Source: Dictyostelium discoideum (Eukaryota). Taken from it: 64,000 nt of DNA. The position numbers were made by a program, and so were the translations under genes. How positions within the stretch are numbered: the stretch's first letter is position 1; every line of letters begins with the position of its first letter. The notes under the pieces are model-generated. The model was not told where the DNA came from, did not search any database, and worked only from the letters and a program-made list of their open reading frames with translations. The stretch lies in the NCBI GenBank assembly GCA_000004695.1, contig CM000150.2:2784001-2848000 (forward strand). The letters run 5' to 3'. This document shows positions 34,161 to 61,608 of this stretch, one piece after another.

Positions 34161-34997
34161 TTATTTTTTTGAAGCTTTTTTAGTTTTTTTTGGTTTGGTA
34201 GCAGCTTGAACTTTTGGTTTTAATTTAGAGGTTGGTTTTTGGGGTGCTAGCTGTTTTTTTTTATCTTTTTCACCTCTTCTCATTTCAGCAATGCTTAGTG
34301 TTTTTGCAATACCATCGGTTTTTGATTGACGACTTGGTCTAGTTGAAATTGGGACAATTGGTTGTTTTTTTGGGGTATCTTCTTTTTCTTCTTCTTCGTC
34401 TTCTTTTTCTTCTTCATCTTCTTCCATTTCTTTTTCTTCTTCTTCCTCCTCTTCTGGTTCTTTTTCTTCTTCTTCCTCTTCTGGTTCTTCTTCTTCTTCT
34501 CCTGGTTGTTCTTCTCCTGGTTGTTCTTCTTTTGTTTGTTCTTCTTCAGGTTGCTCTTCTTCAGGTTGTTCTTCTTCTTCTTCTTCTGATTGTTCTTCTT
34601 TTGGTTCTTCTTCTTCTTCTTCTTGTTGTTCTATTTCTTTTACTTTTTCTTCTTCTTCTTCTTCTTCTTCTGGTTGTTTTTCTTGCTCTTCTTGTTCCTC
34701 TGGTTCTTGTTCATCCTGTTTTTCTTGGGTTGGTTGAACATTTTCTTCATTTTGATTATTACTTTTTTCGTCATCATCGTCATCCATTTGTTTATCTTCT
34801 ACTTTTTGATGGATAGAGGTTTCAAGGGATTGATCATTTGATTTACCCTCAACATCACTTTCTTCTTTTTGTTGAGAGTTGATAATACTTTCATCATCTT
34901 CAATTTCTTGGAATGGAGAATCCTTTTTATCTTGTTCAGTATTTTCCATTTCAACGTTTTGATTATCGTTCTTTTCTTCATCTCCCATTACCTCATC

Positions 34998-35058
<61 letters not shown>

Positions 35059-35465
35059 GTATCACCTTCTAATTCTTGAAATTTTTCATCATCTTCTTGT
35101 GGTTGTTGACTACTAATATTAGATAGAATTGAATTATTTAAATCATTAAAAGTTGATAGATTTTCATCACTTTTTTTTAATGACTCATTTTCTTGAGATT
35201 GAACGAATGATGAATCACTTTGTTGAGATTGAAAAATGTCACTATCAACAGTGGTATCGTTATTGTTTGAACCTTTATCGGTTGGAGTTGAATATTTTTC
35301 ATCTTGGTCAAAATCAATTGATTGACCAGATGTGTTACCACTTGTTTTACTTAGAAATTGGTTTGTAAATGGTGAATTAAATTGATCATTATCAGAATCG
35401 TCATCTGAAGAATTTTCATTTTTAGAAATTTCTCCACCACTTTCATCACTTTCATTCATTTTCTT

Positions 35466-35498
<33 letters not shown>

Positions 35499-35504
35499 TT
35501 CTTT

Positions 35505-35587
<83 letters not shown>

Positions 35588-36159
35588 CTTCTTCATCATT
35601 ATTATTAAATTGAACTTTTGGTAATGGTTTATGAGCTACTACTCTTTTTGGTTGTTTTGGTGAATCTTCTTCCTCTTCTTCATCTTCTTCTTGCTCTTCT
35701 TCATTATCATCCTCTTGTTCATCTTCATCATTATCTTCTTCATTATTATAATTATATTGATTTTTTACAATTTGACTATTATCTTCATCAGAGGAAGAAC
35801 CAATTTCCATTGGTTCATCTTGAGTGCCACCACTACTACTACTATTTACGATTGGTTGTCTCATAAATTGTTGAGTTGGTACTCTATAATTACCATCATC
35901 CTCTTCTTCACCATCGTCATCATCATCATAACTTTGATCATCTTCTTCATCTTCTTCATCATAATCATCATCATCTTGAGGTGATAAGAATTTTTGTTGT
36001 TGTTGTTTTGATGGTTGTAGTCCTGAATAGGTAGAGAATTTTGGTGGTTCTTTACCACCATGTTTTGGTCTTTCAAAATCTTTAAATCTATCTTCTTCTG
36101 AATCATCATCTTCTTCGACAATATCATCTTCAAGTTCTTCTTCAGTATCATCAGTTTCA

Positions 36160-36258
<99 letters not shown>

Positions 36259-39200
36259 AATAGTTTTTGATGTTTTTGATTTTGTAAGAATTGTTGAGCT
36301 TGCGAAGCTTGTTGATCATCTAATTCATCATCGTCATGAACTACAGCACTATCATCATCCTCTTCTTCTTCATCTTCTTCATCCTCTTCTTCATCTTCGT
36401 TTGAATCAATTTTATAGATATCTTCAAACTCTGAATCTTCATCATCATCATCGTCATCATCAGAATCATAATTTTCATCATCATCATCATCATCATCATC
36501 AGAATCAGGCATACCTCTTTTCTTTAATTTTGGAATTGGATATTCTCTATTTAAACTATCTTTAAATCTAACATTTGTAGTTTTCTTGGCAGAACCACCA
36601 CTTTTAAGTGCAGATTTTAATGGTGAACCTTGTGGAGTACTACCACTAGCAACTGATAAATTTGGTGAAGATGTTGTAGTTGAAGTTGTAGTTACCATTG
36701 TTGGGAAAATCATATCAAGAGAAGATTTATTTGAGGTTGCAACTTGTTCTTCTTCTTCTTCTTCATATTCTTCATCATATTCTTCATATTCTTGTTCTTT
36801 TATTTGTTTCTGTTGTTGTTGTTGTTGTTGTTTTTGTTGTAGTAATAATTGTGAATGAACTTCCATTTGATGTTGTAAAAGTTCTTGTTGTCTTTGGAAA
36901 TCTAAAAGTTTTTCTTGTTGATCTTCAAATTCTTTTTTAATTCTTTGTTGTTCTTGTAATTCTTTTTCTTGTTGAGCCAATCTTTGTTGAATTAATAATC
37001 TCTCTTGTTGTTCTTCATTTGATTTCTTTGTTAGAATCTCTAAATTTGAAATGGGAGCAGTTGATAAAGTTGATGATAAATATAAGGAATCATTATAAAG
37101 TTTTGGAATTGGTGATGGCATTACAATTGGTTTTTGAATGAACGATTGTGGTGGTACTAAATTAACTTTTGAAATTGATTTTGGTAATAATGGTATATTA
37201 TCTTCTTCACTATTTAAAAATTGTTGTGGTTGTGGTTGTTGTTGTTGTTGTTGTGATTGTGGTTGTTGTTTTGGTTTATCTTGTGATTCATTTGTAATAT
37301 TAAAATGAATTGGTCTTTGAATTAATGGTAATGATTGTTCATAATTTAATAATAAATGATTGATAGTATCATGACCATCGAAAACATCACCATTGACTCT
37401 AGTGGATTGATAGTAACGATTAACTTTACAAGCTTCAGGAATACGACCTCTTTTAATATAATATAAAGAGATTAGAGATGAAGCTTTCATTTTGAAAAGG
37501 AAATGTAAAAATACTTGTTCTTCAATTTCATCAAGAGACATATTTAAAATTAAATCCAATTTCTTTAAATTAAATGTATAATTAAATATTGAAAATAATA
37601 ATCTTTCAATTGAATCGATTGTTAATTGATCTTGTAAACGATTTCTAAAACTACGTTGGAATAAGATTGCCTCTAGAATTGAATGATTTGATAAAAGAAT
37701 TCTAACATATAACTGAGCTTCATCTGGAGTTTGTGGTTGGAAATTAAAACCTTTCATTAAAAGTTGAGCATAATTTTTGAATCCAAAACTATAAAATCTT
37801 GCTAAAATTGGATAAAGATATTTCTTTGTAACTTTTGAAGAATTTAATAATGTAAATGCACTTTTAATATCTTCATCAATTAAATTACTATTATTTTCAC
37901 GATTGGTGGCATCTTCATCATCATCATCATCGTCATCAATATTCATTTGATCTTGTGATTTTAATAAATAACTATCTAATTTCCAAATACCCATAATAAA
38001 ACTATAATAATTACTAGAGATATGGAAAGAACCAAAGAATGATTTTAAAGTTTCCGATTGATGTAAACTCTTTCCATTACTACCATTACCACCATTAAGA
38101 TCAGTTAATTCTAAATCTATTAATAAATAGAATAGTACTGAAATCTTTTTTGTAAATTGTTGAGATGATTCAAAAATTTTAAAGAATGATTTCATAGTTT
38201 GAGAATTATGTGGTGGATAAGAACTCATTATTTGATTACCATCAGTCGTTGTTGTTGTTGTTGTTGTTGTTGTTGATGTCGATGACGATAAATCAATATT
38301 TGAATAGAATAAATCAATTAATAATCTATCCGAAAGATATTGATTAGTTCTACCAATATTACCCATTTCAATTGTTAATTTCTCTTTAATAATTTTTCTC
38401 TTTTGAATTGTATAATTTCTAACTGATTCCATATCATTCAATGTTGATGGTTTAAATAAACCAAAATATAAAGACCATTTTAAAATTTCAATAAATCTTG
38501 CAATATTAATTGCTTGATCAATTTTAATTTTTAAAGTATCTGGTAATAAATTGGAATTTGAATTTAAATTTGAATTTGAATTAGAACCACCACCACCACC
38601 ACCACCATCAATTATCATATCATTTGAATTTAATTTATTTAAATTCTCTTGAATATATCTATCAGCTAATGATTTAAAAATACGAACTAAATCTGTAATT
38701 TTAACATAAACTAATTCTAAAAGTTTTGGTGTATCAGAATTTAATTTACTATAAATTTCAGAGAGACCAAAATTTCTATTTAATGTTTGAAAATGTGACC
38801 AAAACGATTCCAATATTAATTTTGCATTTGATGATTTATAATTTAAAATGTAATCCTTTACAATTGAAATTAAATTATTATTTAATGAAAATATTAATAA
38901 ATCATTTCTTTGTTGTTGTTGATCAGATTTATAGAATGGGAAAATATTTGATTCTACAAATTTAACATAGACTGAATTTAAAAGTGTTGATGATTCAAAT
39001 AAAATTGCACCCTTATTCGATAATTCATATACTAATCTCTCTTTTGGACTTAAATAATCTATATTATCAATAGTTGAAAATGATAATAATTTAAATTTAA
39101 AATTTGGATGATAAATTGTTAAATTTAATTTATTTTCTTCAAAATTTTCATAATTATCATCAAAGTTATCACTACCACTACCACTATTACTACCACTAGT

Positions 39201-40352
39201 TTGATATTGATCTTCTTTACTTAAAAATACTTTACTATTATTATTTTCTAATTGATAAAGTACATTATTTAAAACTGATTGTTGATCAATCCAAATTGAA
39301 TGATAACCATTATTTTTAAAGTTTCCATTCTCATCATCCAATTTAATTGAGTGTAACCAATGTTGTTGAGAATTTGAACTATAATTTATACCATGTCTTT
39401 CTAATAAAAATAAATCAAATAATTTAATTTCAATTTTAATTGTACCATTTTCAATGAATTGATAAATAAATATTGATTTTGATTTTGGTATAATTCCATT
39501 ATTTAATTTTAAATCTTTATTTTGATAAAGATATGACATTAATAAAATTTCACCAAATTGATTAGTTTGACTATTAGTTTGATTAATTTTTGTAATATCA
39601 ATTGGTGTATCAACATTTTGAGTTAATGAAATTAAATTATTAATTGTTTTACTTGAATCTGGTGATAATTGTAAATCAAATTCTAATTTATATAAAATGA
39701 TTGAAATGTTATTATTTGAAGATTTATTATTCTTTGAACCTCTACCAATCCATAGATGACTAACACTTGATGTATCATCATCTTCCAACTCTTGATAGAG
39801 AAAGTTGGTGACTGGTGATTGTTTATTCTCTAAATGACTAACACTTGAATGCAATCCAACCTCTCTAGCTGGTGAACAATAATACAATTTGAAGTTGTTA
39901 CTTGAGAATAACTGAAATGTTCCAATGCTATAGCCAATTGCTATCATTCTTAAACTCTCGATATATTCAATCGATGTAACATCCAATTGAGTAAATTGGT
40001 TGGTTTGTTGTTGTTGTTGTTGTTGTTGCTGTTGCTGTTGTTGTTGTGGATATTGGTGTTGTAATTTACTCTTTAAATTTTGTTGTGTAATACCATTACG
40101 ATCTTCAACTAAATATCCCTCTGATGAATGTTTACCTGCTGGATATTCAAATTTGTAACTATTTCCATTAAATAATTGATCACCACCTAAAATAAAATAT
40201 GGTACTAAATTATTGGTCTTATTATTAAAGAAATGTTTATAATCATAATTTGTTATATCTTGTAATATTAATTGATTCTTTTTTTTTTTAAAAAAAAAAA
40301 AATACAAAATAGATTAAAAAAAATAAAAAATAATTAATATTTGATTTTTTTC

Positions 40353-40392
<40 letters not shown>

Positions 40393-41136
40393 ACTGATGA
40401 TAAAAATTGTTCTCTTAAATTAAAATAAATATCAACTATTATAACTTGACAAGAATTTTGAATACCTAATGCTAATGGAGTTTTAATATTTCTAATTAAA
40501 TCAGCTTGTGCTTTTGAGAATTTAGATTCTCTATATAATTGTTTAATGTATGTTATAGTTGATAATGGTGTTGTATCCAATGTTTTTAATGTGTCACCAG
40601 TTTGAATATCTAAAACTTTTAATGATGTACTATTTCCACCCTTTAATGCTACAACAATAAATATTTGATCTTCGACAATTATTTCACCAACTGCTGTAAC
40701 TGAACACTAAAAATAAAAAAATAAAAAAATAAAAAAAATAAAAAAAAAAGGGGAAAGGGGAGGGGAGGGTTCAATAAAAAATAAATTAGTCGTTAAAAAC
40801 AAAAAAAAAAAAAAAACAAAAAGTTAATATCATTTTATTATTATTTTTAAAAAAAAAAAAAGTAAATATATATATATTTACCTCAATTGAATTTTCAACA
40901 ACAAAACAAAATGTTGTTATTCTTTTACCATTATTTAAATCATAAAAAAATATTTCGTTTTCTTTTGTAAACCAACTATAATTACCATCAGAAGTTATTC
41001 CTGATGGAATTTCTTCATGGTTTATATTTGGTTGTTTATTATTATTATGATGAGTATTTCCATAATTGAAATTATCAATTGGTGGATATAATAATTTTCT
41101 ATTGATTTTAGTTTCCATTGTAAGTGGAAAAGACAT
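34161..41136 (-). CDS. Protein of about 2200 aa. The structured N-terminal ~1100 aa are followed by a highly acidic, low-complexity C-terminal half and a basic K-rich tail. Three exons: 41136..40882, 40706..40395 and 40277..34161.
   Basis: The exon joins are E|GTAAAT...TTTTTAG|TGTTCA and TCATCA|GTAAGT...AAAAAAAG|AATCAA, all in phase. Long (CAA)n, (GAA)n and (GAT)n tracts encode poly-Q and the acidic runs. No family is recognised. Confidence 0.65.
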
Positions 41137-41930
41137 CCTTAGAAAAAATTATGATTGGAATGAAAAACCAAAGTGATGTTGAAAAAAAAAAGAAAAAAAA
41201 TAAAAAAAAAATAAAAAAAATGAAAAAAAAAAAAAAATTGAAAAAAAAAATAAAAAAATAAATTTTAAAAATTAAATTTTAATACGGAGCGCGCCGAATT
41301 TTTTTTACTTTTTTTTTTATTTTTCATTTTTATGTTTGACAACTTCAATCCCTTATTAATTTTTTTTTTTACATTTTTAGTTTTTTTGATTTTATCATCT
41401 TTGGCAACTTTAACCTTTTTTATTTTTTTATTTTTTTTATTATTTTTTATTTTTTTTATTTTTTTTTATTTTAATTTAAAAAATCAAATTAGAGTTTGTT
41501 CCTAATAATAAAAATAATAATTAATAAGGTAATAATAACAAACCATTTATAATTTTGATTTAACCCAAATCTAACAACTATTTTTAAAAATCATAAAATA
41601 TTTATAGATGAACAGTGGCAGTTGACTCACAACAAGCATTTAAAAAGATATTTATTTTCACCCTTTTAGTGGAAATTACTTTTTTAAAAATTTTATTGTT
41701 TTCTTTGAAAATTCCCAAATTTAATTTATTTTATTTTTTATTTTATTTTTTTTTTTTTTAATTCTCAAAAAAATAATAAAAAAAAAATAGATTTAATTTT
41801 TTTTTTTTTTTTTTTTTGCCATAATATAAATCAAAAAAATAAATAAAAAAATAAATAAATAAATATAAATAAATAAATAAATCAAAAAAAAAATAAAGTA
41901 AATTAAATAAAAAAAAAAAAAAAAAAAAGA

Positions 41931-44040
41931 ATGTTAACAGTAAATTTTTTAGCAACAAATAATTTTAAGACAAAATATTCCGATCTTTCTAAAGATACAA
42001 CGATTGATAGTCTTAAAATACAATTTTATAGAGAACATTCTTCAAATTTGCCTTTGCCATCTTCTGTATTCATTGAAAGTGATGAAGAGTCAAATAATGA
42101 TAATCATGTAAATAATAATAATAATAATAATAATGGTGATAAAGAAGTTGAATTTAAAGAAATTAATCAAAGTGATGAAAAAGTTGTTGAAGAAAAAACC
42201 AATCATTATTCAAGAGCACATTCATCAATTATTCATTCACATCAAATTAGATTTATTTTCTCTGGTAAACAATTAGAGAATTTTTCAACACTTGAGGAAA
42301 ATAAAATTGAAAATGATTCAACTATTATCGTTGCAGTATCACCATTCCTTGTAAATATCGAAGAACAATTCATTCAACATCAAAAGAAACAAAATCAAAA
42401 AGAATCATCAAATCAAGACCAATCAGATACAGTATTCGTTGGTGTTGCTAAAAGAGATCTCTCCTATATGGGTGGTACTATTGAAGAGAAAATAAAATAT
42501 AAACTATCAATTAATGATCGTTCATTTAAATCATCATCATTACAATCAAATTCTCAAGAATTACAAAAATTAGATGATTCAACTACCTTTAATCTCTTGA
42601 GTAGAATTAATAATTTCAATGATTCAACTATAACTAAAGATCAAACTGCATCCCCAATTATTCCAAATGTAAATTTAATTCCATCAACTAAATCATTTAA
42701 TAATGATTCTAAACTTGATTCAACATTAGAAACTAGTTTAGATAGATTATCACTTTATGAAATTCCAAGTAGAGATAAAATGGATTATTTAAATTCATCA
42801 TCACCACCAACAAATAATCCTACTACTACTACTTCTACCGCAACAACAACAGCAACAGCAACAGCAACAACAACAACAACAAAAACTAATCAAGAAATTA
42901 TTAAACCAAAATTATCAATTGAACATTTTTCACCAAATGGTGAAGTTTCATTTGCTGATTCAATTTCAATTATGTTTAATAGACCATTCCTTGATTTATC
43001 ATCAAATACAAAAGAAATTGAACTTCCAATTAAAATAGTTCCACCAGTTAAAGGTGCTAGTTGGCAATCAGTTGATGGTATTCTTTTTAGATATAGATTA
43101 CCAACATCTGAACCAACAACAACAACAACAACAACATCCTTTGGATTAAATTCATCACAACCAAACTTTTTCCCATTATCAACAACCTATAGGGTATCGG
43201 TTGAATGTTCAAACTTTAAAAAACTTTTCAAAGAAGATATTGCTCCATTAGAATATTCATTTACAACTTCACCACAATCATTACTAAATTGGGAATTTAA
43301 TAATGATTTAATCTTACCACAAATCAAATTAACATTTTCACAACCAATTGATTGGAGTAAATCTTCTGCCATTGCAAATTTATTTTCAATTAAAACCAGT
43401 TCAAAATTAGATCCAAAACTCACAAATCTTTCTTTTGTTCCATTAAACACTAATGATGAATCATGTCATTGGAAGAAACAATTGGAGCAAAGTTCAACCA
43501 CTGTTAGAGATAAAATATTTTGTGTTTCAATTACATCAAAGAATATTATAAAATATGAATCAACCATTGAAGTTGATGTTAAAATTGGTTCAATCGCTTC
43601 AAAGGAAGGTCCAAATTTTAATCCAATGAAAAATATAATTGGAAGGATTTTAACACCATCATTTCTTAGTATAAAAGCTGATTTATTACCAGAGTCCATA
43701 TTAAGTAAAGCAACAGAAGTTAGTTTTTCTTCAAATAATATATTGGAATCTAAAATTATTCCTTCAAATCAATATGACAATTATTTCTCAATTATACCAA
43801 AGGTTGAAATTACTTCAGTCTCTATATGTGGTAAAAGTGTTCGTATTTTTGCCAAATTTAAACATTCCCAAACTTATTCAGTTTCGATTAAAAAGTTTAA
43901 AGATATTTATGGTCAAATTGGTGATTCTCATGGAATTTTCTCTTTTCCAAATATTCCAATTAAAATTTGGACTCATCCATCAATTTCTTCATTTACAAAT
44001 AATTTTTATAATTTAGATCCAAATTCACAGTATGTATTAA

Positions 44041-44080
<40 letters not shown>

Positions 44081-44089
44081 TAATATATT

Positions 44090-44162
<73 letters not shown>

Positions 44163-47100
44163 GACCAATTTTTAAAATTAATTCAACAGGTACAGATCAA
44201 TTAATTATTAGAGCATTTACAGTTTCAAAGAAAACATTAAAAAGAAAAACAAAAATTAGTGGATCATTAAAAGTTGATGTTAATAAAATTAAAAATGAAA
44301 ATGGTGAATTTGAATCAATTTCAACAACTACAATTGATTTAGCAAGTTTCTTTGGTGGTAGAAATGTTCATAGTTGTAAATTTCAATTACTTCTTTTTTC
44401 AATTTCATATCCTGGAAATTTAATTTCTCAAGTTTTTGAAAAAGGAGATGATGGTACACAATTTTTATTACAATATACACCAATCAATGTAAATTCTTTT
44501 GAAGTTGGTAATCAATTCATTATAAATGCAACCGATTCAATCTCTAGAGAAAATTTAAAGAATTTATCATTAAAAGTTTATAATGATGATGATGGTGATG
44601 AAAAAGATAAAAAATCATTCAAACAATACACGATAACAGATTCACAAATTCAATTATTTGAAAAATCTACAATCGGTGGTTCTCATATGTTTATTTCAAC
44701 ATTGGATGGTAAAAACAAATGTTTATATCAAGTTCCTATCAATGAAATCAATAAGAAACCTTATGAATTCACTACCATAATTTTTGCCCAACAAGGAATT
44801 TTTCGTCCTGGCGATACTGTTAATGTTAAAGGTACAATTAGAGTTGTAGTTGATGAAGGTGTAATCTTACCAGATTCAAAGTTTTTCTCAAAGTATATTG
44901 ATGTTTATCAAAATGATGATATGGTAAATATATCATACACTTTAAAGGATGCAAAGAAAAAAGAAGTTGCCAAAGGTATAACAAAATTAAATGAATTTGG
45001 TTGCTTTGATCTAAAGTTAGTATTACCATTGGATATTAATTTGGGTAACTGTTCAGTGGTTTATAAATATTGTAATGAAGAATTCTCATTCTCTGATATC
45101 AATGTTCAAGAGTTCAAATTGAAAACATTTTTATTGGAATGCTCAATGTCAACCGAATCAAATCGTGGTACCTTTGAATTGGAGACACCATTTGGTGTTG
45201 AATTATTTGCAAAATCATACACTGATGAAATTATACCAAATACAACTGTAGATTGGAAAATCACCGTAAGACCATTGACACCAATCCTCTCGAATTTGGA
45301 TAAAGCTTTCAATTACTTTAGACATGAAACTGATAATATGTATTTTGGTGAGAGTTTTGCTTATAAAAGTAAAAGATCACCAAATGGTAAACATAATTTA
45401 GATTTGGTTCTTCAAGAATGTTCACAACGTTGTGAAGTTAGAGTTCATGCAACTGTAGCCGATGCTTCAAATAATCAAGAGGAAATCTCAAAGAATTTTA
45501 TTGTAGAGAATACTAAATTCACAAACTTTGGTGTTTTAAGTTCCAGTTCAACGATAACTCATCTTATTAATGTCGGTCAAGATTTCCATGTTGATATGTC
45601 ATTGCGTTACTTTGACAATCAACAATCATTTGATGGTAAAATCGATGCAGAAATTCAAAAGATTCCATATGAAGAAGATTTATTACCAGAGAATGTTCAT
45701 AAGAGTACAATCATACCACATACTGATACTCCTTTAAGATTCTCTTATCAATTCAATGAAACTGGTTATTATAAAATAAAATTAAACTATAGTAATGGTG
45801 GTGAACAATTATCTCAATATCATACCATTTCATTGTTTGTATTTGGTAAACAATCTCAAGCAGAATTAGAATATAAAGAATGTACTGCACCTGTTAAACA
45901 AACAACTACAAACAACACCTCATTACTCTATGGAAAGGAAACATTTAAAGCTAAACCAAAACTTGATATCAATTGTTCATTAGATAAAGAGATTTATCAA
46001 TTGGGTGATACAATTAAAATGTGTATCTCTTCAAAATCATTGAATGCCAAGGGTTACATTTGTTGCTCCAAAGAGAATACAATCATTAATGTCATACCAA
46101 TTCAATTGATTGATGGTCAACATGATTGTAAATTTGAAATCAATGAAAAAGTTTATTATCAACCATTATTCTATGTTTATTTAGAAGGTAGTTTGTTGGT
46201 GGAAATAAATGGTGGCCAAAAGGTTAATCGTTTAACAAGTTCATTCGTAAAGGTACCAGTAAAGATTGATTACACTGACAAGCTATTGAATGTTCAAGTT
46301 GAAAAATGTAATAAATTCCAATCTCCATCAGAAGAATCAAATATTACTATCAGTGTAAAAGATAAAAATCAAAAACCACTCTCAAATGCTCATGTTTCAT
46401 TGATTATTGTTGATCAAGCAGTTTTAGATATAACAAAGCATTCAATTAAAACCCAATGGGATCCATTAAATACTTACTTTGGAGATGGTTCATTTTTTAT
46501 TGGTAGAAATAAAATGAACTCTCTATTGGACAAAACAATCTATAATGATCCAGTAGAAATTAAAACCATTGAATTGGATCTTGAAGATTTCCAAGGCGAT
46601 AATGAATTACAAATCATTAATATTAAATATATGGCAGGTAGAATCATTCAATTAAAAGTATCGGATGAAACAACCATTGGTGAACTTCAACAAATGATTA
46701 TGGACAGAGATGGTCTTCCACCATCATCACAACGTTTATTCTACTTGAATAAACAAATTGATTCAAACGCAACAATGAAACTTAAAGAATTTTCAATCGT
46801 TAATAAAGCAACTCTTAATTTGGTAATCCGTTTACATGGTGGTACAAATACACCACCTTCAGATGACAAACCACTAGCTCAAGATTTGAATAAACCAATT
46901 AGAGTACGTTCAAACTTTATGCCTTTGGCTTACTTTGGAAGTTTAAATACCAATCAAGATGGTAAAGTAACATTTACTTATAAACTTCCAGATAATCTTT
47001 CAACCTTTAGAGTTATGGCTTTGGTTCACTATGGCAAAGATCAATTTGGTAGTTGTGAACATACTTTTATATCATCGTTACCAATAATGGTTCGTCCAAG

Positions 47101-49171
47101 TCCACCACGTTTCTTAAATCATAATGATAAAGCAATATTCCCAATTATGATTTCATCAATCGTTGATTGTGATTTATTTTTTAGTGGTGCAATTCGTTCA
47201 AATAATTGTAACATTGAAACCAAAGGATTCAGTGGTGTACTTCCAGCAAAATCTAGAATCATATTCCCTGTCCATGTTAATGCTTTAGTTTCAAATTGTA
47301 TTGCAGACTTTCAATTTGTTGCAAAAACTCAATTATTAGATCATTCACAAGAGATTTGTGATGCAATCTCATTTAAATTCCCTGTTTTCTCTTCAAGTGT
47401 ATTGGAGACAACAACTATCAATCATAGTTTAGTAAATTTGAAATCAAAGAAAGAAATTTCATCTCACAACTTAAAACTTGATAATTGGAAAGATTTAGAT
47501 CAACAATTGGGTGGATTAACAATTACTCTATCAAAAACTAAACTTCAAAAGATTTCATGTTCAGTTAAAGATTTATTACATTATGAATACTCTTGCTCTG
47601 AACAAATTGCTTCAAAATTATTAGCCCTCTCCACCTTTATAAAGTATCCACATTTATTAGAAGAAAAAGATATCAAAGCTTTAGGTCTTGAGAATATTAA
47701 AACCAATAAGAAACCTTTGGAAGATATGGTTGAAATTTTAAAGAAACGTTATCAATCATCAGATCATTCATTCACTTATTTCGATGATAAAAAGAGTGGT
47801 TCATATGAATTTGTTTCAGTATTTGTTTACTTTGTATTGAATCAAATCTCTGATCTATCGGAAGAAGCCAAAAAATTGGCATCAAAGGCTGAAGCTTACT
47901 TTTCAGGATCTGCCAATGTAATGGTTTTTAATAGAGATTCTTATGAAAAGAATAAATTCCAATATCTTTTAGGTAAAGCATTTGCATCATTTGTCTATGG
48001 TACCATTAAACAAACCTCTGTACCTCATACAAGTTTTATTTCAAAGGTTTTACAAACTGCAAAATTCGATTTCTCAAATAGCCAATATCAAGAGATCTTT
48101 ATCTATCTCTCACAATTCTACAAGAGTCACCTCGATTTCAAAAATATTTCAAACTATGTTACAATTACTGGTTCCTTGGCTTATGTTACTTCTAGTCCAA
48201 TCTTTGGATTCTATGGGGATACTCGTCTTCAGTCAATTTTAATACTTTCACTTTTAGAAAGTGGAAAGACATCACATAAAGATCATCCACTCTTGGAACG
48301 TTTAATAAGTGGTTTAGCTCATTTTGTAAATAAAGAAGGTCGTTATGGTACTACTCAAGCCAATGCATTCAATATCTTTGCAATCTCTCAATATGAAAAG
48401 ATGAAATTATCAGGTGAAAAAGTTGATCCAACATTGGATGCAAGTATTATTTTAGGAAATCGCTATTTGGAAAAGAAAAAAGTAACAATTGGTGATTCAG
48501 AAAATTATACAATCACTGTACCTTTCTCTCAAATCCTAAAGAATCAAAAACCATTGATAATTCAAAGAAAAACAAAAGGTACCCTTTATTATAGCATAAA
48601 TCTCTCCTATGCTTCATTGAATCCAATCTCTAAAGCTATCTTTAATAGAGGTCTCAATATTAAAAGAACCTATTATCCAGTTTCAAATTCAAATGATGTT
48701 ATTTATCATTCTCCAATTGGTGTTGACCAACCTCAAACCATTGAAATCAAAGCAGGTTCAAGAGTAAAGGTAACACTTTCAATAAAGGTCGATCATGTTT
48801 CTAGCTTTATAGTTATTAAAGATAGATTACCAAGTGGTTTGGAACCATTACTTTCAAATTCCTATTATCACAATGGTTATTATTTCAATCATGTTAATAA
48901 TCGTGAAAATGGTGTTGAAATTTATTCAAATCTTTTATATCCAGGTGTTTATAATTATTCCTATCAAACTATTGCAATTACACGTGGTACTTTTATTTCA
49001 CCATCAGCAAAAGTAAGTTTAAAAAATTTTTTCTTTTTTTTTTTTTTTTTATTTCTTTTCATATTACTGATATACTTTTTTTTTTTTTTTTTTTTTTTAC
49101 TTTAGATTGAAGAAATGTATTGTCCTGCAACTTTTGGTCGTTCTTCTTCAGAAATTGTATTAATTAAATAA
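41931..49171 (+). CDS. Alpha-2-macroglobulin/thioester-containing-protein (TEP/CD109)-like giant protein of about 2330 aa with two embedded ubiquitin-like domains. Three exons: 41931..44029, 44164..49012 and 49106..49171.
   Basis: An MG-domain-like FRPGDTVNVKGTIRVVVDEGV follows QVPINEINKKPYEFTTIIFAQQG. The candidate thioester motif is YSCSEQIASKLL (C-x-E-Q). The C-terminal CPATFGRSSS tail is encoded by a final exon reached from a GTAAGT donor. An internal ubiquitin-like domain reads MAGRIIQLKVSDETTIGELQQMIMDRDGLPPSSQRLFYLNKQ...LNLVIRLHGG, and an N-terminal ubiquitin-like segment reads IRFIFSGKQLENFSTLEENKIENDSTIIVAV. Intron 1 (GTATGT...AG) contains (AAT)n. Confidence 0.6.
44090..44160. repeat. 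(AAT)n tract inside intron 1 of the A2M-like gene.
   Basis: Direct reading. Bounded by the GTATGT donor at 44030 and the AG acceptor at 44162-44163. Confidence 0.85.
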
Positions 49172-50457: not shown

Positions 50458-51595
50458 ATGTTCAATGCTTTTAAAAAGATATGGGCACCAACTGTAAATA
50501 ATGATGAAGATGAATCAAAAGAAAGACAAGAATTAGGAATTTCAGAAGAGTTAATACAATTGGTTGATAATATATCTAGATTCCCTGAATCTTTTAAAGA
50601 TTTTCCTTTTCAAACTTTAAAAGATCCTTGTAGGTTTTTTTTTTTTTTTTTTTTTTTGATTATAGTGGTATAGTAGTATTAGTATTTGTAGTAGTAGTAA
50701 TATTGACCATCAATAATATTCATACATTTATAATATATTTATATATATAATATTATTTACAGCACTTAAAATGACAAAAATTCAAAAAAGACATGTTGAA
50801 AAGATATTAGAGATTGTTAAACCATTAAATGATTTAAGATTTCAAATGTGTCCATCAGTCATGAATGATGAAAAATTTTGGAAGATTTACTTTACACATA
50901 TTCAAGTAGTATCAAAAGGAATGTTTAATCAATCACCATCATCAACAACAACAGGTACAACAACTACTCAACCACAATCACCAACAAACTTTTTAGAAGA
51001 ATTGGATTCTCAATTTGATAAATTATCATCAAAGAAGAAACCATTCGATGAAGGTATCTCTGAAGAAGAAGATAGCTATTTCTCAATAAATACCTATATG
51101 TTACAATCAAAACAACAACAATTATTACAACAACAACAACAACAGCAGCAACAGCAACAACAATTATTATTACAGCAACAACAACAACAAACTCAACCAA
51201 ATTCATTAAAATCATCAACTTCTTCAATTACACCAAATAAATCACCAATATCAGGTGGTGGTGGAATACAAATAGGAAATAAAATAGCAGTAACTCAACC
51301 AGTTGCTGCCTCCTCTCCAACTTCAACTTTAACACCAACATTAAGAAACAATACTGATAATAATAAAAATAATAATAGTGATGAAAACAACAACAACAGT
51401 AATGCTATATCACTACAATCAAAACCAAATAATAATAATAATAATAATATTGAAATTTTAAACAATACCAATAATAGTAATAATACTTTAATAGATACAA
51501 ACTTTGATAATATAAATAATACAAGTATTATTACAGATGTACAACGAAATATAGAATTGGATAAAAGTATAGATAATTTTTTAAATCCAAGTTAA
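50458..51595 (+). CDS. BSD-domain protein (SYAP1-like). Two exons: 50458..50629 and 50763..51595.
   Basis: Exon 2 contains the BSD-type motif KFWKIYFTHIQ. The junction is T|GTAGGT...TTTACAG|CA, phase 1. The C-terminus is low-complexity and Q/N-rich. Confidence 0.55.
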
Positions 51596-52763: not shown

Positions 52764-54030
52764 TTATTCTCCAAGAATAAATTTAAAATATTCATAAACA
52801 GACCAAACTATAGCAGAACTCATTGAATGGAAAACCATTCTTGGTTTCATACCTCTTAAGTAACCATCCATACCTTCTTCGATCCAAATTGTTTTCATTG
52901 CATCCATCATACCACCATAACGTTTAATTGATTTAGCTGAATTAATTGTTGAACTTGCGATAAAATCTGATTGAGTTTGAAGTCTAGTTTTAACTACATC
53001 AAATGGATTTGTAAATGCTGCTGCCAACATACCAGCACCACCACCAGCAACTAAATGATCGATCAATTGATATGATCTCTCCTCTGGATTCTTATTATTA
53101 AACCATGGTTGAATTATCTTTTTCAAACTTTCATAGGATGCAAAGTATACAATATTGTATGGTACATTCATAACTAATGTTGTAGTATAACCTGAATAGA
53201 AACCTCTAATACCTTCTTTTACCCAAATTCTCTTTGTACAATCTGTTAATCCTTTATAATCTGTAATTTGTAATTGTAATCTTTGTTTAACAACATCCAT
53301 TGGTGATGCAACTGCTTCACTTGTCATCTGAATAAAAAAAAATAAAAATAAAAAATAAAAAATAAAAAAATATATATAAGTATTCAAATAATTTTTGTGA
53401 TTTATTATTATTATTTTAATAAATATTTTAATAAATATTTTAAAAAATACTTACAGTTGCGATAGCACCTGCAATACCAACTTTAATTGGATGATGATCT
53501 TCATCGGAACCAATGAATTTAAATTTAAGTAACTCGTATATTGAAAAATGTACAGCATGAGATGGAGCAGCACCAGCTGCAACTGCTGTTAGCCCTCTAA
53601 ATAAACCAGTGATACCATGTTGTTGTATAATATGTTTAGTAATTTGTAATGATGATGTTTGCATTGCACCTGGTTTAATTGCTTGAATGTGTGTCTATTA
53701 TTTATTATCATTAATTACAAATATTTGTAAAAATAATATTGATGATGATGATGAAGATGATGATGATGATGGGAAAAAAAAGTATAAAATATTGAATTGA
53801 GTTGGTATTTTTTTTTTTTAACCAAAAATAGAAATTTTTTTTTTTTTTTTTTTGGATTCCAAAAATTGTGGTAAATTAAGTTTTTATTTTTGTAGAGAAG
53901 AACATACCTTAATTGTATCAATTGGGTACATACCACAATGTTCTGCAAAACCAGCTGCTGCACCGGCAATTAAATGAACGTAAAATGATCCACCTTCATC
54001 TCCATGACTATGTCCGTGATCACCACCCAT
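52764..54030 (-). CDS. Mitochondrial carrier family protein, mitoferrin-like (iron importer Mrs3/4/SLC25A37 type). Three exons: 54030..53908, 53694..53455 and 53327..52764.
   Basis: The three carrier repeats carry P-x-[DE]-x-x-[KR] signatures: MYPIDTIKTHIQ, SPMDVVKQRLQ and NPFDVVKTRLQ. The N-terminal His-rich stretch MGGDHGHSHGDEGG, and AGAIAT|MTSEAVASPMDVVKQRLQ spanning the exon junction, match mitoferrins. Donors are GTATGT and GTAAGT. Confidence 0.85.
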
Positions 54031-60540: not shown

Positions 60541-61608
60541 ATGGCAGATAAGAAAATTATTATCGATTTTGGATCAGGTTGGACAAAATGTGGTTTTGAA
60601 GGTGAAGTAACACCAAGTGTAGAATGTTTAACAATTGTTGGACATCCGAATAAACAAGGTGATACAAAATTGTTTTATGGTAAAGAAGCAGTTGCAAGAT
60701 TTAGTACATCAAAATTAGTGTATCCAATAAAGAATGGTATAGTTTGTAATTGGGAAGATATGGAAAAGTTTATAGAGAATACATTTTATTATAAATTAAG
60801 AGTTGAACCACAATATCATTCGGTATTACTAACAGAAACAACAATGAATACTAAAGAGAATAGAAATAAAATGGCAGAGATTATGTTTGAAACTTATGAT
60901 ATACCATCAATTAAAATTGAAAATCAACAAAAGTTATCATTTGATCATTTATCAACAGGTACTAAAAACGGTACAATAGTTGATATGGGTGATGACTCAA
61001 TTAATATAGTGCCATTTGTTGATGGTCAACCAGTGACTGATGCCGTTGTTACACTTGATTTCGGTGGTCGTAATTTAACAGGTTATTTGGCCGCTTTGTT
61101 ATTCCAAAATGGTTATAGTTTCTCAACAGTTGCTGATCACCAAATTGTACGTCAAATTAAAGAGAAACATTCTTTCATTGAATTGGATTATGAAAAACCT
61201 TCAAATACTAAAAAACAATCATTTTCTTATCCTGGTTCATCTGATATTCAAATTGATGCTCGTTATTTATACGGTTGTCCTGAACCACTTTTTAGACCTT
61301 CACTAGTTGGTTTTGATTCTTCTGATAGTCTTTGTAATTCAACTTATTCTTCAATTATGAAATGTGATCAGTCAGTTCAACAATCATTATTTTCAAATAT
61401 AATTTTAACAGGTGGTTCTTCAATGTTTACTGGAATTAAAGAACGTCTTGAATTGGAAATTTCAAAAATTAATACTACCAGCAATAAAATTAATATAATA
61501 TGTTCAAAAGATCGTAAAAATTCAAATTGGTTAGGTGCTTCAAAATCAATTACTTCAACTGATAATTGGGTTTCAAAAGAAAAATTTACTGAAAAGGGTA
61601 CTTTTTAA
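60541..61608 (+). CDS. Divergent actin-related protein (actin/Arp family fold), single exon.
   Basis: 355 aa. The actin-like N-terminal phosphate-1 motif is IIIDFGSGWTKCGFEGE. VYPIKNGIV, LTGGSS (phosphate-2 like) and a C-terminal NWVSKEKFTEKGTF are also present. Divergence from conventional actin is high. Confidence 0.7.
   Translation: MADKKIIIDFGSGWTKCGFEGEVTPSVECLTIVGHPNKQGDTKLFYGKEAVARFSTSKLVYPIKNGIVCNWEDMEKFIENTFYYKLRVEPQYHSVLLTETTMNTKENRNKMAEIMFETYDIPSIKIENQQKLSFDHLSTGTKNGTIVDMGDDSINIVPFVDGQPVTDAVVTLDFGGRNLTGYLAALLFQNGYSFSTVADHQIVRQIKEKHSFIELDYEKPSNTKKQSFSYPGSSDIQIDARYLYGCPEPLFRPSLVGFDSSDSLCNSTYSSIMKCDQSVQQSLFSNIILTGGSSMFTGIKERLELEISKINTTSNKINIICSKDRKNSNWLGASKSITSTDNWVSKEKFTEKGTF

Follow-up and report, generated by a model that had tools for sequence, protein, structure and literature searches.

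A bacterial-type alpha-2-macroglobulin with a ubiquitin fold in its bait region, predicted to be cytosolic, in Dictyostelium discoideum

What a ubiquitin fold might do in the bait region of an alpha-2-macroglobulin (A2M) is the question raised by a single gene of Dictyostelium discoideum. The gene lies at 41931..49171 on the plus strand of the window, the stretch of 64,000 nucleotides analysed here (assembly GCA_000004695.1, contig CM000150.2, positions 2,784,001 to 2,848,000), and its three exons encode a protein of 2337 residues plus a stop; all features below are on that strand unless stated otherwise. To our knowledge, no A2M or thioester protein characterised so far acts in the cytosol, their sites of action being plasma, haemolymph or the periplasm, and the only baits known to us are unstructured peptides and the ANA domain of complement. 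The protein is a true member of the A2M superfamily and belongs to its bacterial thioester-type branch, and its architecture points to a trap or tagging device inside the cell, not described before, that proteases cutting ubiquitin would set off. A full-text literature search returned no description of a macroglobulin or thioester protein from Dictyostelium or any amoeba, of a ubiquitin-containing bait or of the ortholog accessions. Judged from sequence, the new elements are a bacterial-lineage A2M predicted to reside in a eukaryotic cytosol, the apparent use of ubiquitin as bait and a ubiquitin-like (Ubl) domain that takes the place of an export signal.

Membership of the superfamily is settled by comparison of folds, the single-sequence search of the PDB being weak: with the C-terminal half as query, that search was dominated by polyubiquitin and, once ubiquitin had been removed, returned ECAM only at an E-value of 0.011. 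The AlphaFold2 (AF2) models span residues 1301-2316 and 1-699, so that the last 21 residues, with the EXMY motif, and the junction of exons 1 and 2 lie outside both. In the first of these models (mean predicted local distance difference test score, pLDDT, 81.8), beta domains are followed by a helical thioester domain (TED) and then by further beta domains, which is the expected order. Foldseek matched it to all solved members of the superfamily (1e-42 to 1e-26), with native ECAM (5a42, 3.8e-42) and Salmonella A2M (4u48) first and frog and human A2M, CD109, A2ML1, C3, TEP1 and C5 ranked below the bacterial structures. Pfam recognised bMG10 (8.5e-21), ubiquitin (6.9e-18; residues 1518-1590, with one more stretch besides), Rad60-SLD (1.2e-10; residues 96-134), A2M_BRD (2.8e-08) and A2M (1.2e-07); like the structural matches and the orthologs reported below, these lie far beyond what chance would give. 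The A2M_recep and metazoan TED (A2M_TED) models of Pfam found no match in the protein, and NCBIfam held no family for it or for a bacterial relative. The bacterial branch is assigned because of the bMG10 domain, the bacterial origin of the closest relatives and the leading structural ranks of ECAM and Salmonella A2M. Of the claim of a sequence-only reading of this DNA, that the protein belongs with A2M, TEP and CD109, the superfamily thus stands and the affinity with TEP and CD109 falls.

An exhaustive phmmer search of 1.84 billion representatives retrieved seven full-length orthologs (2177-2327 residues, E 0 to 5e-173), from D. citrinum (the closest, at 89% identity), D. purpureum, Polysphondylium violaceum, Cavenderia fasciculata, Acytostelium subglobosum, Synstelium polycarpum and Heterostelium album, all deposited as 'hypothetical' or 'ubiquitin domain-containing protein'. 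The matches listed after them are polyubiquitins and A2M-family proteins of ~2000 residues, the latter beginning at E ~1e-61 and, where named, bacterial (a cyanobacterium, Vulcanimicrobiota, Deltaproteobacteria and Gemmatimonadota); the non-dictyostelid relatives among the best matches are all bacterial, at 25-31% identity. A word-indexed search with residues 1301-2337 likewise returned bacterial 'alpha-2-macroglobulin family / YfaS' proteins (25-29% identity), together with one Naegleria protein; it recovered none of the seven dictyostelid orthologs, though all are in its collection, and its negatives call for caution with a protein so A+T-rich at the DNA level and so rich in low-complexity sequence.

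From about residue 325 through to its last residue the protein is collinear with the ~2000-residue bacterial A2Ms, in the order Ig-like domains, macroglobulin (MG) domains, bait-region domain (BRD), MG7, CUB, TED with CSEQ, and bMG10 with EXMY. The Ig-like beta-sandwich domains (residues 325-690, 42903..44000; pLDDT 80-95) align with P0139, P0133, P0135 and others, are homologous to the N-terminal domains of the long bacterial proteins and are matched by Foldseek to bacterial Ig-like domains. The MG2 domain (residues 906-1001, 44780..45067) scores 29.4 bits, which is under the Pfam gathering score, the C. fasciculata ortholog being over it; it aligns with bacterial YRPGEEVHLKGW and contains FRPGDTVNVKG (residues 913-923, 44801-44833), the motif already picked out as MG-like from the sequence. 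There follow A2M_BRD (residues 1305-1455, 45977..46429; pLDDT 80-96), the A2M domain of the MG7 region (residues 1627-1693, 46943..47143), which aligns with ECAM 938-1040, and bMG10 (residues 2196-2323, 48650..49126), which covers profile positions 1-130 of 131 and is split by intron 2.

Between A2M_BRD and A2M, residues 1456-1626 are variable and disordered save for an inserted ubiquitin, as befits a flexible bait region, and are flanked by conserved VDxAxLxL...DP..F on the BRD side and PIRVRxNFxPLAxF on the other. A variable linker (residues 1456-1515, 46430..46609), of which the distal ~36 residues are disordered (pLDDT <50 for model segment 178-213), leads into the ubiquitin domain (residues 1516-1593, 46610..46843), which is folded in the AF2 model as a beta-grasp (model segment 216-288, pLDDT 79-90) and whose nearest match in a phmmer search of the PDB is ubiquitin itself (~1e-12; 33-42% identical to ubiquitin). 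Its position in the bait and its ending, IRLHGG (residues 1588-1593, 46826-46843), are as the sequence-only reading had them. The Gly-Gly (codons 46838-46843; model positions 292-293) falls in a flexible segment, 290-309, with pLDDT <50. Beyond it, a disordered acidic linker of ~17 residues precedes the conserved PIRVRSNFMPLAYF (together 46844..46942), in which IRVR-x-NF-x-P is conserved through to bacteria and which by analogy is likely to be the alpha'NT 'plug'.

The ubiquitin domain is conserved where its surroundings are not: between the protein and the six more distant orthologs, identity is 47% in the ubiquitin, 16% in the linker before it and 10% in the linker after it. R42, K48, Q49, R72, L73, G75 and G76 (ubiquitin numbering) are invariant in all eight species, namely D. 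discoideum, represented by the protein of the window, which is itself absent from the searched collections, and the seven orthologs. Position 74 is variable (H, Y, S or F), I44 is replaced by F or L and H68 by N. K48 is the sole invariant lysine, K11 and K33 being arginine in all eight species, K6 arginine in six, and K27, K29 and K63 largely replaced otherwise. Proline never follows the Gly-Gly, the residues found there being T, A, G or S. Elsewhere the same position is occupied by 60-100 unstructured residues, in the bacterial relatives, or by a Cys-rich stretch, in Naegleria. No ubiquitin domain was contained in any other long A2M match retrieved, and a profile search for the ubiquitin-MG7 junction yielded 13 fragments and no ubiquitin-A2M join, in a search insensitive enough to miss the known orthologs too.

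Downstream of the bait, the TED (residues ~1827-2117, 47543..48415) is all-helical in the AF2 model (segment 527-817). It carries CSEQ at 47594-47605 (C1844 to Q1847), within YSCSEQIASKLL (residues 1842-1853, 47588-47623). When HYEYSCSEQIASKLL is aligned with ECAM AYPYGCLEQTASGLF, CSEQ stands opposite the thioester CLEQ, and the site aligns equally with YPYECAEQ, YPFECSEQ and YPFECCEQ of the bacterial and Naegleria relatives. The consensus of a 60-sequence alignment is YPFECSEQLASR, with C, E and Q each at least 90% conserved. CSEQ had been proposed as a Gly-to-Ser variant of the GCGEQ thioester site; the equation with the thioester site is upheld by the ECAM alignment, and the variant is rejected because CSEQ is, by these alignments, the normal motif of the closest bacterial subfamily (YPFECSEQ). 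C-[ST]-E-Q and a tyrosine at -4 are retained in all eight dictyostelid proteins; of the pocket tyrosines upstream of C1844, Y1840 and Y1842, that at -2 varies among orthologs. In bacterial A2Ms, two tyrosines of the TED together with the Met-Tyr of the EXMY motif in the C-terminal MG domain shield the thioester (PMC4498604). Here, EEMY is encoded by exon 3 and aligns with bacterial AEEMYxPExFGR(S...VE) at the extreme C-terminus. The thioester motif and its protective pocket are under clear purifying selection.

The N-terminus presents a second ubiquitin fold. Residues 1-137 (41931..42341) form a split domain, detected by Pfam as Rad60-SLD and by AF2 and Foldseek, of which the two halves, 1-44 (beta-beta-alpha) and 100-137 (beta strands), are modelled at pLDDT 86-96 and parted by a disordered Asn-rich and acidic insert (45-98). 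Foldseek superposes it on ubiquitin or SUMO with target-normalised template-modelling scores of 0.87-0.93 and root-mean-square deviations of 1.1-1.3 Å. It is conserved in the orthologs, retains HPYQIRLIFGGKQLEN, which is close to ubiquitin (an RLIF-x-GKQLE-like patch), and ends in VAVSPF, without Gly-Gly. Ubiquitin folds that lack the Gly-Gly are found likewise at the N-terminus of proteasome shuttle factors of the Rad23/Dsk2 type. It is followed by a disordered, low-complexity and lineage-specific linker (residues 138-320, 42342..42890; pLDDT <50), which shows 17% identity among orthologs and has no bacterial counterpart. A second Ubl segment in an N-terminal extension of some 700 residues had been noted from the sequence; the Ubl is there, and the lineage-specific extension amounts to only ~320 residues, since residues 325-700 are homologous to bacterial Ig-like domains.

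Bacterial relatives start with a signal peptide, lipobox or anchor (e.g. ...FGSWMSCGTKK in P0135). The D. discoideum protein possesses neither of the superfamily's export signals, signal peptide or lipobox, and scanning of its whole length disclosed no signal peptide or membrane segment, the best 19-residue Kyte-Doolittle window reaching 1.54. In Dictyostelia, a non-cleavable ubiquitin fold and about 180 disordered residues stand where the bacterial proteins have their export signal, and have replaced it. The protein is most likely cytosolic, a prediction made because it has no hydrophobic N-terminus or membrane segment and begins with a beta-strand of a ubiquitin fold. Of the attributes of bacterial type I A2Ms, the bacterial host and the lipoprotein anchor are missing, this being a eukaryotic gene with two spliceosomal introns and no lipobox; linkage to pbpC, another trait of type I A2Ms in bacteria, is not applicable to a eukaryote.

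How might such a protein work? In the A2M trigger, the content of the bait is irrelevant, and what matters is that the chain is broken and that alpha'NT, which in human A2M carries a conserved R-x-x-F, leaves the central channel; baits can be rewritten to choose protease specificity, and in complement factors a folded ANA domain occupies the bait site, with the activating cut at its C-terminal end (PMC9352918). The amoebal bait consists of a folded 78-residue domain whose strictly conserved RLxGG is followed by a permissive P1' residue and a flexible spacer of 17 residues, after which comes IRVRSNF, with its R-x-x-F. The best reading of this architecture, drawn by analogy and held tentatively at something short of an even chance, is that of a cytosolic thioester protein triggered by a ubiquitin-specific protease that cleaves after the Gly-Gly. 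The bait ubiquitin would serve as a substrate mimic for a protease specific for ubiquitin or a ubiquitin-like protein; a cut between Gly1593 and Thr1594 would break the bait chain, free the downstream 'plug' and trigger the conformational change of the family, and this change would expose the Cys1844-Gln1847 thioester, which could then link covalently to whatever adjoins it. The geometry would copy that of complement C3, in which a folded ANA of ~77 residues sits at the same place and is cut at its C-terminal end.

The target of such a reaction may be the protease still held on the tethered ubiquitin, as in an A2M-like snap-trap, or a nearby surface, as in tagging by C3 and TEPs, so that the protease, whether endogenous or pathogen-derived, may be the target itself or only the activator. 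A cysteine deubiquitinase bound to the tethered ubiquitin, transiently as an acyl-enzyme, would favour capture, in the manner of ECAM and A2ML1 as monomeric snap-traps. The N-terminal Ubl and the invariant K48 would route the adduct to the proteasome, p97 or autophagy, and this ubiquitin-based routing would replace the receptor-mediated clearance of metazoan A2M. A fuller version, which we regard as speculative and rather unlikely in its entirety, is a cell-autonomous, 'complement-like' device of the cytosol made from a horizontally acquired bacterial macroglobulin, in which a deubiquitinase or Ubl protease cuts the decoy ubiquitin and the thioester fires to capture the enzyme or an adjacent pathogen surface. 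Its typical trigger would be a pathogen effector injected to strip ubiquitin from its vacuole; the target would be left with ubiquitin folds that are integral to a polypeptide, hence deubiquitinase-resistant, and would be flagged for the proteasome or xenophagy with the E1-E2-E3 cascade bypassed altogether.

Several points weigh against a deubiquitinase-triggered protein. Every step beyond the architecture itself is inference, and the predicted template-modelling score of the AF2 model is 0.51, so that the placement of the ubiquitin relative to the MG ring is unreliable. A missing signal peptide does not strictly exclude unconventional secretion. Housekeeping deubiquitinases abound in the cytosol of eukaryotes and as a rule cleave off linear ubiquitin fusions, and a bait with an exposed Gly-Gly might be cut constitutively unless its diverged surface protects it. 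That surface has diverged (~37% identity, with I44 replaced by F or L, H68 by N, and R74 variable), and mimicry aimed at pathogen enzymes might predict a stronger similarity to ubiquitin.

A first alternative, somewhat unlikely in our estimation, is that the ubiquitin domains are never cleaved and serve as handling signals within the chain, which the proteasome, p97 or autophagy receptors would recognise, K48 being a site of chain extension; the flanking disordered linkers would then be the real bait, for ordinary endopeptidases that enter the cytosol from pathogens or ruptured lysosomes, for instance. Both flanks are indeed disordered and hypervariable, like classic bait regions, K48 alone has been kept among lysines otherwise replaced mostly by arginine, and the N-terminal Ubl is of a non-cleavable type with its RLIF-x-GKQLE-like receptor patch intact. 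Integral, uncleaved UBL domains, however, do not normally retain a Gly-Gly end, and R72-L73-x-G75-G76 is invariant across the major dictyostelid groups in a protein whose own N-terminal Ubl lacks the Gly-Gly. Furthermore, by an analogy with C3 inferred from PMC9352918, cleavage ahead of the ubiquitin, in the first linker, should leave the protein untriggered, since the plug would still bear a folded stopper.

A second alternative shares the cut after the Gly-Gly with the deubiquitinase-triggered reading and differs in its purpose: housekeeping deubiquitinases would make it constitutively, as furin does in C3 and C4, to give two chains of ~180 and 85 kDa, with activation left to some other cue or with a protein that acts as soon as it is made. 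Cells efficiently process linear ubiquitin fusions and ubiquitin inserts in polyproteins, as in the ubiquitin-fusion technique and the ubiquitin insertions of pestiviruses, and here the Gly-Gly tail is exposed and the next residue permissive. Constitutive processing would nevertheless discharge a thioester whose motif and pocket face purifying selection, and in this superfamily a break just upstream of alpha'NT means activation and not maturation (PMC9352918); the proposal is accordingly judged improbable.

The same conservation makes it very improbable that the thioester is no longer used and that the protein has become a large ubiquitin-decorated scaffold, like the thioester-less type II A2Ms of bacteria (MagD/YfaS). 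The JGI label of the bacterial relatives is 'YfaS (alpha-2-macroglobulin family)', the pocket tyrosine at -2 varies in the orthologs, and the RDDR-like motif is degenerate (RENG in the D. discoideum protein). Against this, CxEQ, the tyrosine at -4 and EXMY are conserved in both dictyostelids and bacterial relatives, and PMC5764988 defines type II proteins as those that have lost the thioester.

A secreted, TEP- or CD109-like amoebal opsonin of metazoan type, in which GCGEQ has drifted to CSEQ, is hardly credible. Metazoan A2M, CD109, A2ML1, TEP1 and C3 are significant structural matches (1e-39 to 1e-34), but bacterial structures head the Foldseek ranking, bMG10 is present and A2M_recep unmatched, the close non-dictyostelid relatives are all bacterial, CSEQ is the consensus of a bacterial subfamily and there is no signal peptide; a metazoan TEP origin was rejected on these grounds.

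Scarcely any weight attaches to an artefactual gene model, whether two genes (41931-44029 and 44164-49012) wrongly fused or a bacterial contaminant, since homology to the intron-less bacterial proteins and to all seven orthologs is unbroken at both junctions, the conserved C-terminal EXMY..FGR motif comes from exon 3, and spliceosomal introns and a G+C content of ~22-30% fit Dictyostelium. Joined in frame, exons 41931-44029, 44164-49012 and 49106-49171 give an open reading frame (ORF) of 7014 nucleotides with a single terminal stop, and the single gene of ~2330 residues originally modelled is borne out. Both splice junctions are supported because collinear homology is continuous across each: the alignment with D. 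citrinum and intron-less bacterial homologs is gap-free over NLDPNSQ|PIFKINS and over ...SPSAK|IEEMYCPATFGR. Intron 1 (44030..44163; 134 bp, GT..AG, 96% A+T) contains a poly(A) and an (AAT)n run; reading through exon 1 beyond 44029 meets a stop at 44048, and use of the alternative acceptor close by, at 44189, would break the frame. Between 44038 and 44160 this intron consists of a poly(A) run of ~37 nucleotides, then ~23 tandem AAT repeats and almost nothing else, which makes a likely length-polymorphic microsatellite within the gene. Intron 2 (49013..49105) measures 93 bp (GTAAGT..AG, 89% A+T). The third exon (49106..49171), of only 66 nucleotides, encodes IEEMYCPATFGRSSSEIVLIK and the stop, and includes CPATFGRSSS (residues 2322-2331), rightly assigned earlier to a short C-terminal exon and aligned here with the bacterial C-terminus. 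Since the EEMY that it encodes aligns with that terminus, this micro-exon is real and functionally important. At the other end, the gene shares a divergent promoter with a minus-strand neighbour (ATG at 41136), and since the start codon at 41931 comes after the A-rich spacer of that promoter, an upstream exon is unlikely. G+C is ~22% across the window and 26-30% in coding stretches, and spliceosomal introns set in homopolymer-rich, A+T-rich intergenic DNA are a typical Dictyostelium context.

Single-copy and found across Dictyostelia, the dictyostelid proteins form one clade in a neighbour-joining tree of ~1100 conserved C-terminal columns, a crude tree that cannot resolve the donor or the timing of acquisition. 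Within this clade the branching mirrors the species tree, with D. discoideum, D. citrinum, D. purpureum and P. violaceum on one side and Cavenderia, Synstelium, Acytostelium and Heterostelium on the other, which speaks for vertical inheritance. The simplest history is that a bacterial gene was acquired once, before Dictyostelia radiated, that the export signal was then lost and two ubiquitin folds gained, and that inheritance has since been vertical, in single copy. The Naegleria homolog branches elsewhere, among bacterial sequences, and common ancestry with it was rejected on that account. This protein, P0112 of Naegleria lovaniensis (C9374_013412), is a second, apparently independent case of a bacterial-type thioester A2M in a eukaryote (CCEQ); its bait is a Cys-rich stretch (…KRCCCKKSCAVPCCSCCGACKQR…), not ubiquitin, and its gene model looks truncated at the N-terminus. 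Rotifer fragments (P0287 and P0292, from Rotaria sp. and Didymodactylos carnosus) also contain a bacterial-type A2M domain (PF00207), ~39-51% identical to the MG7 region, and may signify either horizontal transfer into bdelloid-type rotifers or bacterial contamination. Among the orthologs themselves, the model from Synstelium polycarpum (P0126) is without the first half of the N-terminal Ubl and has an unrelated tail (…AKVCTPDTKALARAEF…) in place of EEMYxPxTFGR, the only ortholog model to lack what the micro-exon encodes; its annotation has probably missed the first exon and the 3' micro-exon, and its C-terminus is obviously mispredicted.

The neighbouring genes (a BSD-domain protein, a mitochondrial carrier, actin and a large gene without recognised domains) give no functional clue, as is expected in a eukaryote. 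Upstream, the divergently transcribed partner (34161-41136, minus strand) is a very large multi-exon gene with a 2048-residue ORF at 34161-40307 and small 5' exons; scanned separately, this ORF and a 116-residue 5' ORF had no Pfam match. Between exons of this gene, in a stretch of >85% A+T, a G-rich tract at 40750-40769 (ggggaaaggggaggggaggg) is unusual for the genome and forms a possible G-quadruplex-type motif, and within the A+T-rich divergent promoter region a lone GC-rich island at 41284-41300 (tacggagcgcgccgaa) could be a regulatory element. Downstream lie a BSD-domain ORF (50771-51595, plus strand), a mitochondrial-carrier ORF (52764-53387, minus strand), probably a single exon within a larger gene, and a gene for actin (60541-61608, plus strand; Pfam Actin 5.9e-81).

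Were the deubiquitinase-triggered reading true, a cytosolic member of the superfamily with a ubiquitin bait would be a natural deubiquitinase-specific inhibitor or sensor that works as a suicide substrate, a principle introduced into human A2M only recently, when protein engineers rewrote its bait. One polypeptide would join two ancient tagging chemistries, thioester opsonisation and ubiquitin, and would clearly exemplify how a defence protein of bacteria is put to new use once transferred into a eukaryote; it would also offer a new and testable innate-immunity candidate for Dictyostelium infection models (Legionella, Mycobacterium, Burkholderia). On a conservative reading, the protein would be no more than a cytosolic thioester protein that carries its own degradation signals, and the known range of the superfamily would still be widened.

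Amongst known systems, the nearest are the uncharacterised ~2000-residue A2Ms of bacteria (cyanobacteria, Myxococcota/Deltaproteobacteria, Chloroflexi, Gemmatimonadota, Vulcanimicrobiota and others; P0139, P0003, P0028). They share with the amoebal protein the Ig-like domains, MG2, BRD, IRVRxDFNPLA, YP(F/Y)ECSEQ, bMG10 and the EEMYxPExFGR end, and differ in starting with a signal peptide, lipobox or membrane anchor and in having a plain disordered bait, with no ubiquitin in those retrieved. ECAM (YfhM) and Salmonella A2M (5a42, 4ziq, 4rtd, 4u48), monomeric 'snap-trap' protease inhibitors of type I, provide the best structural match and have in common with it the CLEQ/CSEQ alignment, the pocket tyrosine, EXMY and a bait just before MG7. 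ECAM, however, is only ~14% identical, is a periplasmic lipoprotein and lacks both the ubiquitin folds and the additional N-terminal Ig-like domains. Metazoan A2M, A2ML1, CD109 and insect TEP1 share the fold, the logic of the thioester and the concept of a bait, but are more remote in sequence than the bacterial proteins and are distinguished by GCGEQ, a receptor-binding domain, a signal peptide, disulfides and glycosylation. Structures of A2ML1 with a TEV bait (7q60, 7q61) are among the Foldseek matches, and such engineered baits show that the sequence of the bait sets protease specificity.

Linear ubiquitin fusions, such as polyubiquitin and the ubiquitin-ribosomal protein precursors, resemble the bait domain in a different respect, its closest relative being ubiquitin and its RLxGG being followed by a residue other than proline; in contrast to them, the amoebal domain is only ~37% identical to ubiquitin, has kept K48 alone among the lysines and is embedded in the middle of a 2337-residue scaffold. 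Complement C3, C4 and C5 offer the closest parallel for a folded domain in a bait: in addition to the superfamily fold, they possess a folded ANA of ~77 residues in the bait position that is cut before alpha'NT (PMC9352918). These factors are secreted, processed by furin and carry C345C, whereas the amoebal protein is of bacterial lineage and without a signal peptide, and their ANA is a helical bundle released as an anaphylatoxin, whilst the beta-grasp of the amoebal ubiquitin would stay tethered.

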